Below are positions 2,263 through 63,324 of a stretch of DNA of 64,000 nucleotides, one piece after another. Source of the DNA: Octopus vulgaris (taxonomy: Eukaryota). The notes beneath the pieces were generated by a model. The model ran no database searches. It was not told the origin of the DNA and saw only the letters and a list, made by a program, of their open reading frames with translations. Numbering within the stretch: the stretch's first letter is position 1; each line of letters starts with the position of its first letter. Where the stretch lies: assembly GCA_951406725.2 (NCBI GenBank), contig OX597840.1, positions 33,852,001 to 33,916,000 on the forward strand, read 5' to 3'. Made by a program: the position numbers and the translations under genes.

Positions 2263-2523
2263 CAATTGTTGCAGTCAATATTTACAATAACCCCTTGTTC
2301 TATTTTGTCGTTAAAATAAACAACTTCCTCCTCGGATGTCTTCCCTGGTTTCCCATCTTTTTCAATCCAGCCGAAGGGATTGAAATCATCATAACCAAAT
2401 TCTTTCCTGAATGTATCAGCAGTGAATATACACACACACTCCTTCCTGGTGCAATATTTCAGTTCCAGGTTTTTCCCATGGCAACCACGCACATCCGTCG
2501 TATCCGAAACGTAAATACAAGTC
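2263..2523 (-). CDS. Exon: end of TSP1 + following Cys module
   Basis: RTCIYV...[19 protein letters not shown]...IDCNN; tttcag acceptor, GTAAGT donor, phase 2/2. Confidence 0.9.
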
Positions 2524-62500: not shown

Positions 62501-63324
62501 TATTTTATTCCCTGTCTTTAAAAATAATGTCTGGTCAATTAGCCTGGATCTTTCTGTTGGTGTTGATTGGAAAATCCCAGAGGATAGTGACATTTTATTA
62601 TTATTATATAAAAGAAATGATTATTATTGTTATTGTTATTATTGCTATTGTTGTTGCTGCTGCTGCTGCTTTTGAGAGTAACGGTCTTTGCCCTAGTAGG
62701 AGAAGTCCGAACCGAGGTCCTTTGCTATCCGTAAGACCCGCAGAAGAGAAAGCGGGTCAACCCCTGACACCGAGAGCATCGACGGATGGATGAATGCGCA
62801 TCCAGGCTCAGCGGTTGCGTAAGAAGTCGGGGACAAGAAACAGGAAGAAAGAGTGAGAGAAAGTTGGGGCGAAAGAGTACAACAGGGGTCGCCACCCCTA
62901 CCCCCTGCCGGAGCCTCGTGGAGCTTTAGGTGTTTTCGCTCAATAAACACACACAACGCCCGGTCTGGGAATCGAAACCGCGATCCTCCGACCGCGAGTC
63001 CGCTGCCCTAACCATTGGGCCACTGCGCCTCCACTGTCGTTGCTGCTAAATATAATAATTACCAATTAGTGCATTTCCGCCTCATAATAGAGCCAGCTTC
63101 ATAGATTTTATTTCCATTCAATTTGTCATAGCATGGACATTTGTCAGTGCCGACACATTTCATATTGTTGTTCAAGACAGTATTTGAATCTGGTGGACAA
63201 GCGCATCCAGGAACACATTCTTCTTCACAAGACGGATTCTGCAATTCTTTATCCCGACAATTTCCATTACAAGAACTTGCGCATTCTAAATATTGAAGCC
63301 CAGAATCTGGTTCACATCCATAGC
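2263..63324 (-). CDS. Partial multi-exon gene (28 exons in window): SCO-spondin-like / gel-forming mucin-like secreted glycoprotein
   Basis: All exons have AG/GT boundaries and chain in phase without stops. Domain order TIL-E-TIL-E-VWD-C8-TIL-E-6xLDLa-4x(F5/8C-like)-PTS-TSP1. Start and stop lie outside the window. Confidence 0.92.
2659..2955 (-). mobile_element. Non-autonomous Helitron family 1
   Basis: On the minus strand reads A|TC...CCCGA-CAACG-CCGGG hairpin...CTAG|T; no TSD. Confidence 0.78.
3312..4290. mobile_element. Tandem array of 4 piggyBac-type MITEs (252-bp period)
   Basis: Each unit reads TTAA-CCCTTT...AAAGGG-TTAA with imperfect ~15-bp TIRs. Confidence 0.75.
4395..4585 (-). mobile_element. 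SINE/LINE-tail fragment with (GAT)n tail (related pieces ~42888-42960, 55440-55765)
   Basis: catcatcgtttaacgtccgttttccatgctagcatggg motif recurs in the window. Confidence 0.6.
4887..16161 (-). CDS. Giant exon (11,275 bp): PTS mucin tandem-repeat domain + start of TSP1
   Basis: Within the 3780-aa ORF; atttcag acceptor in phase 1 matches the previous exon; ends [23 protein letters not shown] then GTATGG donor. Confidence 0.93.
16554..17010 (+). mobile_element. Two adjacent mariner-derived MITEs
   Basis: TA-flanked TIRs; interior encodes [20 protein letters not shown], a mariner transposase C-terminus. Confidence 0.8.
17230..17900 (-). pseudogene. Decayed RLE-type non-LTR retrotransposon fragment (HERO/NeSL-like C-terminus)
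   Basis: Frameshifted remnants IKFLI...[22 protein letters not shown] (CCHC region), LKPDMILLS...[10 protein letters not shown] (PD-D/ExK nuclease). Confidence 0.7.
18820..18961 (-). CDS. Module 4 exon B (most diverged copy)
   Basis: [47 protein letters not shown]; 142 bp. Confidence 0.88.
19114..19390. repeat. (CA)n microsatellite
   Basis: Direct reading. Confidence 0.95.
20201..20617 (+). mobile_element. tRNA-derived SINE family A
   Basis: A/B-box head, internal (TA/TG)n, (GTAAAAGA)n tail; many copies in window. Confidence 0.85.
20650..20990 (+). mobile_element. Non-autonomous Helitron family 1
   Basis: Ends cccgagcaacgccgggcgatactgCTAG|t. Confidence 0.78.
21071..21480 (-). mobile_element. 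SINE family A
   Basis: Reverse copy inserted into a fold-back arm. Confidence 0.85.
22137..22278. repeat. (TA)n microsatellite (one of a cluster at 22024-22870)
   Basis: Direct reading. Confidence 0.95.
23088..23608 (-). CDS. Module 4 exon A
   Basis: Paralogous exon, 521 bp, longest poly-Thr linker, phase 1/0. Confidence 0.88.
25603..25906. mobile_element. Solo LTR (Ty3/gypsy-like)
   Basis: TGTTACG...CGTAACA termini flanked by a 4-bp ATAC duplication. Confidence 0.78.
26620..26761 (-). CDS. Module 3 exon B
   Basis: 142 bp, near-identical to 35470-35611. Confidence 0.88.
27191..27445. repeat. (GATA)n followed by (GGAT)n
   Basis: Direct reading. Confidence 0.95.
28107..28560 (+). mobile_element. 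SINE family A with 13-bp TSD
   Basis: TSD aaaataaccatta on both sides. Confidence 0.88.
28631..29115 (-). CDS. Module 3 exon A
   Basis: Paralogous exon, 485 bp, phase 1/0. Confidence 0.88.
29455..29782 (+). mobile_element. Chimeric SINE (C body + B tail); paralogue at 33643-33955
   Basis: TSD tacattgtcgag; empty site visible in the paralogous intron near 24125. Confidence 0.82.
29871..30430 (+). mobile_element. SINE family C multimer (monomer at paralogous site 34044-34262)
   Basis: Repeated gcgatggactggcgtcccgtcc...aaaagggcgcattt units. Confidence 0.8.
30931..31337 (+). mobile_element. SINE family A (duplicated with the module)
   Basis: Same flanks as 34756-35177. Confidence 0.85.
31628..31769 (-). 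CDS. Module 2 exon B
   Basis: 142 bp, near-identical to 35470-35611. Confidence 0.88.
32853..33307 (-). CDS. Module 2 exon A
   Basis: Paralogue of 36712-37136 with same splice phases; 455 bp. Confidence 0.88.
34756..35177 (+). mobile_element. SINE family A (duplicated with the module)
   Basis: Same flanks as 30931-31337. Confidence 0.85.
35470..35611 (-). CDS. Module 1 exon B: C-terminal part of F5/8C-like domain
   Basis: [47 protein letters not shown]; the LDIHGC ending resembles the F5/8C terminal motif; phase 0/1. Confidence 0.88.
36712..37136 (-). CDS. Module 1 exon A: T/P linker + N-terminal part of F5/8C (discoidin)-like domain
   Basis: ...[23 protein letters not shown]...[18 protein letters not shown]...KSFMIMF...PFGK; phase 1/0. 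Confidence 0.88.
37993..38376 (-). mobile_element. SINE family B with 14-bp TSD
   Basis: TSD aaaatattaaaata. Confidence 0.85.
38579..38647 (-). CDS. Probable small linker exon (69 bp)
   Basis: [22 protein letters not shown]; polyT-ggcag acceptor, weak GTAGCT donor, phase 1/1. Confidence 0.5.
39347..39765 (-). mobile_element. SINE family E dimer (monomers ~19545-19775, 60470-60640)
   Basis: TSD cccaccctaaactt. Confidence 0.82.
39875..40229 (+). mobile_element. 5'-truncated RTE-like LINE 3' end
   Basis: [20 protein letters not shown]...RRVQFTGHC...LLLWKP...DREVWR followed by a (TGA)n tail. Confidence 0.8.
40555..40587 (-). CDS. Micro-exon (33 bp), Thr/Pro/Ser linker
   Basis: [10 protein letters not shown]; ttacag acceptor, GTAAGT donor, phase 1/1. 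Confidence 0.72.
41040..41470. repeat. (CA)n microsatellite, ~430 bp
   Basis: Direct reading. Confidence 0.95.
42235..42593 (+). mobile_element. Helitron-like family 3 (second copy at ~37390-37851)
   Basis: a|TCttatataaaa start; ccgtcca-t-tggacgg hairpin near 3' end; two dispersed copies. Confidence 0.55.
42988..43104 (-). CDS. Exon: LDLa repeat 6
   Basis: [41 protein letters not shown] donor, phase 1/1. Confidence 0.92.
43142..43655 (-). mobile_element. SINE family C head-to-tail dimer
   Basis: Two units inside one TSD ataagatagttta. Confidence 0.85.
43800..44178. repeat. (GGA)n-rich polypurine tract
   Basis: Direct reading. Confidence 0.9.
44190..44300 (-). CDS. Exon: LDLa repeat 5
   Basis: [36 protein letters not shown]; phase 1/1. 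Confidence 0.92.
45095..45315 (+). mobile_element. Degenerate RTE-like LINE 3' fragment
   Basis: [11 protein letters not shown]...[11 protein letters not shown] remnant. Confidence 0.45.
45989..46105 (-). CDS. Exon: LDLa repeat 4
   Basis: [36 protein letters not shown]; phase 1/1. Confidence 0.93.
46238..47255 (+). mobile_element. Helitron-like element with 5 tandem ~161-bp 5' repeats
   Basis: Starts a|TCtctatatatataaa; 3' hairpin cactatgaccc...gggtcatagtg. Confidence 0.65.
47370..47492 (-). CDS. Exon: LDLa repeat 3
   Basis: [37 protein letters not shown]; phase 1/1. Confidence 0.93.
47803..49072 (-). mobile_element. SINE family D tetramer (318-bp period); monomer at ~56400-56692
   Basis: Four units inside one TSD agccctcctcatat. 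Confidence 0.85.
49236..49349 (-). CDS. Exon: LDLa repeat 2
   Basis: [35 protein letters not shown]; phase 1/1. Confidence 0.93.
49869..50026 (-). CDS. Exon: end of E3 + LDLa repeat 1
   Basis: [10 protein letters not shown]...[28 protein letters not shown]; phase 2/1. Confidence 0.92.
51142..51235 (-). CDS. Exon: TIL3/E3 module
   Basis: [31 protein letters not shown]; phase 1/2. Confidence 0.9.
51408..51823 (-). mobile_element. SINE family E dimer
   Basis: 17-bp TSD ttagtatgaaagtaata. Confidence 0.85.
51867..52016 (-). CDS. Exon: TIL3 domain
   Basis: [21 protein letters not shown]...[14 protein letters not shown]; phase 1/1. Confidence 0.92.
53161..53630. repeat. Tandem repeat, 149-bp unit x ~3.1
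   Basis: Near-perfect copies at 53162, 53311, 53460. Confidence 0.92.
53700..54002 (-). mobile_element. Non-autonomous Helitron family 1
   Basis: Same TC / hairpin / CTAG termini. Confidence 0.78.
54048..54157 (-). CDS. Exon: C8 domain part 2
   Basis: [36 protein letters not shown]; phase 2/1. Confidence 0.93.
54263..54915. repeat. Compound (GA)n / GGAAGAAGATTTA minisatellite
   Basis: Direct reading. Confidence 0.9.
55120..55253 (-). CDS. Exon: C8 domain part 1
   Basis: [18 protein letters not shown]...[11 protein letters not shown]; phase 0/2. Confidence 0.92.
56873..57283 (-). mobile_element. SINE family A (partial copies also at ~1931-2058, 49483-49630, 50120-50330, 50645-50800, 63825-63990)
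   Basis: Full-length reverse copy. Confidence 0.85.
57798..58006 (-). CDS. Exon: VWD domain, C-terminal part
   Basis: GTRVYLHL...[15 protein letters not shown]...FGHSWR...SPCE; phase 1/0. Confidence 0.95.
58340..58755. repeat. Degenerate (GA)n polypurine tract
   Basis: Direct reading. Confidence 0.9.
58781..59122 (-). CDS. Exon: VWD domain (D3-type), N-terminal part
   Basis: [29 protein letters not shown]...[16 protein letters not shown]...IQWDF. Confidence 0.95.
60114..60163 (-). CDS. Exon (50 bp): end of E' module
   Basis: [16 protein letters not shown]; tttgcag acceptor, GTAAGC donor, phase 2/1 bridges both neighbours. Confidence 0.85.
60318..60381 (+). repeat. Interstitial telomere-like (TTAGGG)n with TTACGG variants
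   Basis: About 10 hexamers. Confidence 0.85.
61408..61499 (-). CDS. Exon: TIL'/E' module
   Basis: [30 protein letters not shown]; tag acceptor, GTAAGT donor, phase 0/2. Confidence 0.9.
61870..62065 (-). CDS. Exon: end of E module + TIL' domain
   Basis: [10 protein letters not shown]...CPKNQ...CQLTC...[20 protein letters not shown] donor, phase 2/0. Confidence 0.9.
62672..63034 (-). mobile_element. SINE, family B body with a different 3' tail
   Basis: Head and body match 37993-38376; tail unrelated. Confidence 0.75.
63063..63324 (-). CDS. Exon: TIL domain + start of E/VWC-like module
   Basis: [22 protein letters not shown]...CVPGCACP...CPCY...KCTN; cag acceptor, GTAATT donor, phase 1/2. 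Confidence 0.9.

Follow-up and report, generated by a model that had tools for sequence, protein, structure and literature searches.

A 64,000-nucleotide stretch of the Octopus vulgaris genome (contig OX597840.1, positions 33,852,001 to 33,916,000; below, the window, whose first letter is position 1) carries on its minus strand a gene of 29 exons, two of them micro-exons, that stays open over 5,505 aa with zero stops in the window. Encoded in order are a D3 assembly (VWD-C8-TIL), six LDLa repeats, four modules of predicted discoidin-type fold, a domain of ~3,735 aa with a high share of proline, threonine and serine (PTS) and one TSP1. We consider it reasonably probable (about 0.6) that the product is a gland-secreted, O-glycosylated polymer serving as a mucus or glue scaffold; it likely works like a mucin or an ap2-type glue scaffold and by descent belongs with SCO-spondin.

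The exon chain and its giant PTS exon

The original prediction, made from the letters of the window, proposed a SCO-spondin scaffold with a giant PTS domain in one frame. All six reading frames were listed, and a first chain was built on 27 minus-strand exon anchors picked by eye, each with its top-scoring acceptor and donor; the phases were not picked. All junctions among the anchors proved phase-compatible (26/26; chance (1/3)^26, ~4e-13), giving 5,471 aa with no stop. A tblastn search with the O. bimaculoides protein located two phase-1 micro-exons, both between LDLa6 and module 1, which take the chain from 27 to 29 exons and from 5,471 to 5,505 aa. The domain search proposed for the spliced chain, run with Pfam on 21 exon pieces, matched TIL three times, VWD, C8, LDLa six times and the start of TSP1. 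The LDLa cluster after D3, used as a SCO-spondin marker in PMC4948705, is present, with 6/6 exons above the Pfam cut-off. The open chain, its phases and the Pfam matches thus uphold the predicted domain order, which had missed the two micro-exons. Three N-terminal VWD-C8-TIL assemblies are indicated: the window covers the end of D2 to D3, and the 91%-identical O. bimaculoides protein has three VWD. The gene exceeds the window at both ends, starting upstream and continuing past 2263 to exon 1342-1296 and beyond.

The giant exon (16161-4887) agrees with the prediction: it spans 11,275 nt (3,758 codons, 53% P+T+S) and is open throughout, while the other two frames hold 205 and 236 stops and the longest open run in 200 shuffles was 226 codons. 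Its PTS domain is built of 22–24-aa units within 11 super-repeats of 170–430 aa (counts as assembled), without Cys and without an N-glycan sequon. We rejected the possibility of an assembly artefact: independent contigs match within the PTS exon over 1,037 and 960 nt, the module units are 87–93% identical rather than exact copies, and Argonauta also has at least four modules.

The TSP1 formed by joining the PTS exon to the next exon matches, at E 1e-13, a profile made from 87 TSP1 segments of vertebrate SCO-spondin. It is the one TSP1 in the window; contigs extend 2,218 nt (X5) and 2,048 nt (X9) past 2263. The 55-aa segment after it weakly resembles the same place in a rotifer relative, top among 185 proteins (60 vs 51), a score of 60 that at least 1 of 500 shuffles also attained; an Atlas look-up of this exon gave no match.

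Table 1. Features of the gene in the window, in the direction of transcription
Feature	Position	Strand	Evidence or remark
TIL + E module closing the D2 assembly	63063..63324	-	Pfam TIL E 3.5e-8; 97% to XP_052833208.1 aa 858-944; first exon in window, with signal peptide, D1 and VWD2 upstream
TIL'/E' (D') region, exons 62065-61870, 61499-61408, 60163-60114	60114..62065	-	Splice sites/phase, Pfam, tblastn
VWD3 with GDPH motif, exons 59122-58781, 58006-57798	57798..59122	-	Pfam VWD E 1.5e-24, 2.7e-10; alignment
C8-3 with GGD-C motif, exons 55253-55120, 54157-54048	54048..55253	-	Pfam C8; alignment; PMC6739602
TIL3/E3 without the insertion carrying MUC2 Cys1130, exons 52016-51867, 51235-51142	51142..52016	-	Pfam TIL; alignment
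Six LDLa exons: 50026-49869, 49349-49236, 47492-47370, 46105-45989, 44300-44190, 43104-42988	42988..50026	-	Pfam Ldl_recept_a 6/6
Micro-exon 1, 33 nt, phase 1-1	40555..40587	-	tblastn with XP_052833208.1; AG/GT ends, frame; new relative to first model
Micro-exon 2, 69 nt, phase 1-1, ends CAG	38579..38647	-	tblastn, frame; likely 5' partner of PTS exon in contigs (inferred)
Module 1, exon A 37136-36712, exon C 35611-35470	35470..37136	-	Equals CAI9742241.1 aa 698-885; fold
Module 2, exons 33307-32853, 31769-31628	31628..33307	-	Splice/phase, copy comparison
Module 3, exons 29115-28631, 26761-26620	26620..29115	-	Splice/phase, copy comparison
Module 4, exons 23608-23088, 18961-18820; most diverged	18820..23608	-	Exon C 88% vs copies 1-3, flanking introns ~50%
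Giant exon: ~3,735-aa PTS + first half of TSP1	4887..16161	-	Open frame, Pfam; acceptor + donor used in spliced contigs
Second half of TSP1 + 55-aa segment	2263..2523	-	Joined to PTS exon in contigs X1-1, X5-16
Cys-rich E/VWC-like piece	1296..1342	-	Splice sites, phase; outside stretch aligned to contigs

Spliced transcripts and the four modules

Four of 24 listed runs were aligned to window positions 2200-19050, a stretch that excludes modules 1–3 and micro-exon 2; the RNA-like status of runs is a guess, none being recorded as RNA. Spliced contigs of two studies (X1-1, X5-16) join 4887 to 2523 without intervening letters, confirming a junction singled out for checking in the original prediction; a DNA-like run reads straight through 4557-5540 and is unspliced there. 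Contigs X1-7 and X5-22 depart from the genome at 16164, leaving 55 and 6 letters, and the DNA-like run continues to 16400; acceptor 16161 is used. Both contigs reaching this acceptor match 3 nt (CAG) beyond 16161, so that the upstream exon ends in CAG. The direct 18820/16161 join, likewise proposed for checking, misfits them because exon 18961-18820 ends in TTC and gives no overlap. Of 15 exon ends tested, micro-exon 2 alone yields exactly the 3-nt overlap, and its joining to the PTS exon is in frame (4,687 aa); twelve upstream open-frame donors end in VCAG, and micro-exon 2 is the sole known exon among them. Since only micro-exon 2 fits the overlap in frame, the contig transcripts likely skip all four modules. 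The predicted single chain needs amending in this respect: the contigs disfavour joining all four modules to the PTS exon, and module skipping is favoured in two samples.

Two other partners were set aside, namely a hidden micro-exon in the last intron and a donor (ACAG/GT) at 17873 that also gives a 3-nt overlap but lacks a phase-1 frame open over 58 nt. Cover of exon 18961-18820 (bin 18498-19050) was 0, 0 and 0 in three RNA-like runs vs 58.8 in the DNA-like run, and no weight is placed on this. When proteins were searched with the start of the PTS, none among 3,117 candidates matched the contig-derived junction peptide.

The database models of the gene are split, as had been foreseen. CAI9742241.1 (O. 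vulgaris, 'mucin-2-like', 907 aa), an exact match over 677 aa in four blocks, ends after module 1, as does XP_052833208.1 (O. bimaculoides, 'SCO-spondin', 1,878 aa; 91% identical), which supplies the N-terminal end; the Argonauta counterpart is spread over three consecutive models. Among the 120 of 460 matches listed in a search of long proteins (up to 5,000 aa), there was no full-length mollusc SCO-spondin with PTS, and a literature search, with subscription papers outside its coverage, found no paper on this octopus locus. Reading through past each module exon C meets two codons and then a stop in 4/4 cases (35465-35470, 31623-31628, 26615-26620 and 18815-18820, minus strand). This stop is precisely where the models of O. 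bimaculoides and Argonauta end, either as a shared annotation artefact or as a real short head-plus-module form. These endings could also mean two genes, one for the head, stopping after a module, and another for PTS and TSP1 that would start from an unseen first exon; the Lineus and Dimorphilus models, too, stop just past a module, and no displayed contig carries head and PTS exons together. We regard this arrangement as very improbable: the acceptor that opens the PTS exon is in use and of phase 1, neither an early Met nor a signal peptide follows it, micro-exon 2 stands alone as a known exon among the fitting donors, and the rotifer model unites head, modules, TSP1 and, at the weak score given above, an octopus-like post-TSP1 segment.

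Each module is a two-exon, phase 1-1 cassette encoding a 141-aa domain with Cys at both ends, preceded by a Thr/Pro linker; in module 1, exon A carries the linker and the first two-thirds of the Cys..Cys domain. Synonymous and nonsynonymous codon differences in the six module pairs (144 codons) number 7:2, 6:4, 7:4, 12:15, 11:15 and 10:13. The modules are under purifying selection and still coding, since copy differences favour third positions and the fourth exon C is far better conserved than its flanking introns (Table 1). Argonauta modules are 65–72% identical to those of octopus. The units were duplicated along with their introns (30330-33420 vs 34158-37246, 92% identical over 3.1 kb), and flank identities across 23024-37246 suggest that the copies are mosaic.

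These modules had been called F5/8C-like. Pfam F5/8C (PF00754) is reached by none of the four module exons scanned (0/4), nor by CAI9742241.1 or XP_052833208.1, and Argonauta scores 18.3 bits against a cut-off of 28.2. The label survives at the level of predicted fold. A module model (pLDDT 79.8, from a seven-row alignment) gave 71 Foldseek matches at E<=0.001 and aligns with IFT25, neuropilin b, CASPR2, factor V/VIII C and DDR domains at Z 11–12, with root-mean-square deviations of 2.3–3.4 over 114–130 residues; CBM32 is also among its galactose-binding-like sandwich matches. The modules are therefore predicted to form a galactose-binding-like (discoidin/CBM32-type) beta sandwich closed by the terminal cysteines. 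In such a model, fold alone cannot separate F5/8C from CBM32, IFT25 or DOC, and it implies no ligand.

Profile comparison joins the octopus modules to those of Lineus, Dimorphilus and Didymodactylos (P 96%, E 1e-9) and matches true F5/8C weakly (P 35–63%; full-length Cys-to-Cys alignment P 63%). A cephalopod-only profile failed to reach the nemertean modules, and profile-profile comparison succeeded. Seven matches came from a search of 1.84 billion proteins, five of them close (including Argonauta and O. vulgaris), the others being a nemertean Lineus 'mucin-2-like' protein and a fibronectin-like one taken as chance. A sequence search of the PDB with the module alignment returned nothing, and the Atlas match to discoidin clusters (0.91) was weak, with little overlap of features.

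Other repeats were seen in the introns. The intron of module 4 holds an inverted pair (20210-20617 / 21087-21479, 88%) as well as a palindrome of 300 nt (21482-21781). At 60319-60381 a telomere-type TTAGGG repeat occurs in about ten copies, and tandem arrays occupy 46242-47055, 47801-49064, 53162-53630 and 3310-4290 (units of 161, 318, 149 and 252 nt), some composed of interspersed-repeat pieces.

Family placement and comparable proteins

Two sets of trees, both without VWF, otogelin and MUC5, were used for placement. The D3-only tree, in line with the VWD3 phylogeny originally proposed, was built on 34 rows, 14 of the 48 extracted having been dropped as partial, mismatched or redundant. In it the window falls outside both the MUC2 clade and the hemolectin clade, with its position otherwise unresolved. 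Resolution comes from D1-D3 (24 chosen rows, O. bimaculoides standing in for the window gene), where octopus, annelid, rotifer and nemertean proteins group at 98/99 and join vertebrate SCO-spondin at 100/99; hemolectin and mollusc CysD mucins form a separate clade (100/100). With the long nemertean branch left out, a quick mixture-model D1-D3 tree of 16 rows gives 97 for the spiralian group and 99 with vertebrate SCO-spondin. These trees bear out the predicted SCO-spondin scaffold and, by sequence, place the gene as the octopus member of a spiralian SCO-spondin branch sister to vertebrate SCO-spondin, outside the MUC2 family and hemolectin. D3 keeps GDPH and, in C8-3, the GGD-C cysteine that aligns with the MUC2 interchain Cys1088 (PMC6739602). 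The TIL3 insertion with Cys1130 is present in the three MUC2 rows of the alignment and missing from the window and the SCO-spondin rows.

Vertebrate SCO-spondin shares with the octopus gene the D1-D2-D'-D3 head, an LDLa cluster followed by a discoidin-type domain, TSP1 and the D3 cysteine pattern. It differs in having one canonical F5/8C, where octopus has four degenerate modules, and 20–25 WxxWxxC (TSP1-type) motifs in three proteins, against one TSP1 in the window; its PTS-rich runs reach at most 107 aa in five proteins checked, vs ~3,735 aa in octopus. Sisterhood in the D1-D3 trees and the common D3 cysteines would suit a neural or glial matrix protein that kept the SCO-spondin role and came from glia or neuroepithelium by secretion, its PTS brush replacing the long vertebrate TSP1 array in a hydrated matrix, and the annelid Owenia expresses SCO-spondin mRNA in radial glia (PMC5543218). 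That reading seems rather unlikely, given the single TSP1 in the window, the limpet and flatworm look-alikes described as gland secretions (PMC7333891, PMC6410801) and the fact that, in the parts of the literature covered, a Reissner-like fibre is unreported outside chordates.

The nearest published design is Mlig-ap2 of the flatworm Macrostomum lignano, a glycosylated protein with VWD, TIL, LDLa, 46 repeats and TSP1 whose depletion by RNA interference abolishes adhesion (PMC6410801). As described there, it has the same order as the octopus gene (VWD/TIL/LDLa head, giant repeat core, TSP1 tail) and was, too, first found as unconnected transcript pieces. Its length is 14,794 aa, its repeats measure 255 and 221 aa, and the domains reported include a single LDLa and two VWD. 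Octopus differs in its six LDLa, its four cassettes of predicted discoidin fold and a PTS brush of the classical type. Five planarian mucin-like loci, SCO-spondin-like at both ends, encode VWD-C8-TIL, a 500–2,000-aa repeat and then VWC/TSP/CT; LDLa and discoidin modules go unmentioned in the section on them (PMC6453901). The idea of a novel hybrid is weakened, for flatworm papers already publish VWD/TIL/LDLa, giant repeat and TSP1 in Mlig-ap2 and the planarian design. Invertebrate mucins near SCO-spondin, and F5/8C in lophotrochozoan mucins, had also been reported, and the domain drawings of that paper may show the octopus layout in other molluscs (PMC4948705).

Among molluscs, the limpet protein P-vulgata_3 (VWD x3, C8, TIL, LDLa x5) occurs in pedal mucus and pedal glands; it has 1,604 aa, and its published description reports neither PTS nor TSP1 (PMC7333891). 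The same study gives P-vulgata_3, with its head domains, a level of 2 fragments per kilobase per million (FPKM), and lists P-vulgata_6 at FPKM 1147, with TSP1 x4 and a cystine knot and lacking a signal peptide. The pair might be opposite ends of a single long gene like that of octopus, against which the listed stop for P-vulgata_3 speaks.

Lineus XP_064639835.1, Dimorphilus CAD5114007.1 and Didymodactylos CAF3537088.1 belong to the same clade as octopus and have three VWD, LDLa, Cys..Cys modules of 134–171 aa and Thr-rich linkers; their models differ in that none has the giant PTS exon. The Lineus protein (4,464 aa) carries seven LDLa interleaved with 15 modules in near-identical blocks, and is itself a candidate mucus scaffold for which a literature search found no description. 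MUC2-type gel-forming mucins likewise combine a D1-D2-D'-D3 head with one huge PTS exon; octopus differs from them in its separate clade, in having no CysD match and no Cys1130-type Cys, and in the TSP1, not D4, that follows its PTS. Hemolectin and the mollusc CysD mucins have canonical F5/8C and a 3+2 VWD layout, and the octopus modules fall below the Pfam cut-off for that domain. In the soft coral Dendronephthya, XP_028403857.1 has VWD x3, LDLa x7, PTS-rich runs of ~1,000 aa and VWC x12; LDLa plus PTS already exists in a cnidarian.

Function of the gene product

The data presented above have led us to propose a model in which head linking, tail dimerisation and PTS swelling follow established mucin and VWF biology. 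D1-D2-D'-D3 heads would assemble in the Golgi and link in the manner proposed for SCO-spondin, probably via the single interchain Cys that is kept (MUC2 Cys1088 type); dimers of the tail would likely be held by a cystine knot that lies beyond the window. Between head and TSP1 tail, the O-glycosylated PTS brush would swell, hold water and space the ends, and the LDLa repeats and discoidin modules would serve as binding sites for lipids, proteins or glycans. Because each module is a phase 1-1 cassette, splicing could set module number, with the contig transcripts likely carrying none.

A giant PTS brush free of Cys is typical of secreted gels, and the 3,700-aa brush of octopus speaks against a structural glycoprotein of extracellular matrix or basement membrane, one that stays in connective tissue, cartilage or an egg coat and is not released as mucus. 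We think this improbable. Pointing towards it, the planarian look-alikes are classed as extracellular matrix proteins (PMC6453901), and in mussel gill the basal-membrane cells are marked by a gene that carries the label SCO-spondin (PMC11299980), a tie by label.

The gland-secreted polymer agrees with the relatives whose sites are known, since the limpet P-vulgata_3, Mlig-ap2 and the planarian gene labelled SSPO are described as gland products; the last is in a parenchymal-cell probe pool (PMC6453901). 'SCO-spondin' has been reported in octopus skin mucus (PMC11431876, PMC10138644), and the supplement of PMC10138644 lists there another LDLa-bearing 'SCO-spondin-like' octopus protein, LOC118764670. 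This is a separate gene (A0A7E6F2Q3), represented by LDLa- and TIL-type peptides. Eight peptides of the window gene were compared with part of that supplement, and 0/8 matched; no conclusion was drawn.

Several points weigh against a secreted polymer. The skin-mucus 'SCO-spondin' peptides examined belong to other genes (PMC10138644), the tissue role (mucus, egg coat, adhesive or neural) is inferred, and the radial glia of Owenia offer a neural precedent (PMC5543218). Mlig-ap2 and the limpet protein are likened to octopus by described domains, not sequence. A MUC2-type gel network is not assured, because the second interchain Cys (Cys1130 type) is absent. Spiralian branches are long in the trees, the D3-only position is unresolved, and none of the displayed contigs (aligned over 2200-19050) links head exons to the PTS exon.

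A bolder version of the secreted-polymer reading is possible though doubtful: the octopus Reissner-fibre orthologue would be a true mucin switched by splicing, a module-free PTS brush alternating with forms of one to four modules, or with short head-plus-module forms, in other glands or glia.

The surprise in this architecture is limited, because its overall design was already published in flatworms. The chain repairs a gene cut at the modules by three cephalopod annotations, a cut that has left the PTS exon invisible to proteomics, and offers a candidate for the scaffold of mucus or glue in cephalopods. It points, by predicted fold, to a discoidin-type module family common to spiralians (cephalopods, nemertean, annelid, rotifer) that Pfam misses. 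That an orthologue of SCO-spondin carries a PTS exon of mucin type bears on the proposal, cited in PMC5543218 and PMC8261243, that Reissner's fibre arose from mucociliary secretions. If the splicing-switched mucin were real, it would define, together with the nemertean, annelid, rotifer, limpet and flatworm proteins, a branch of spiralian SCO-spondins used in mucus and glue, with an uncatalogued discoidin-fold family, and the mucus origin of Reissner's fibre would become directly testable.

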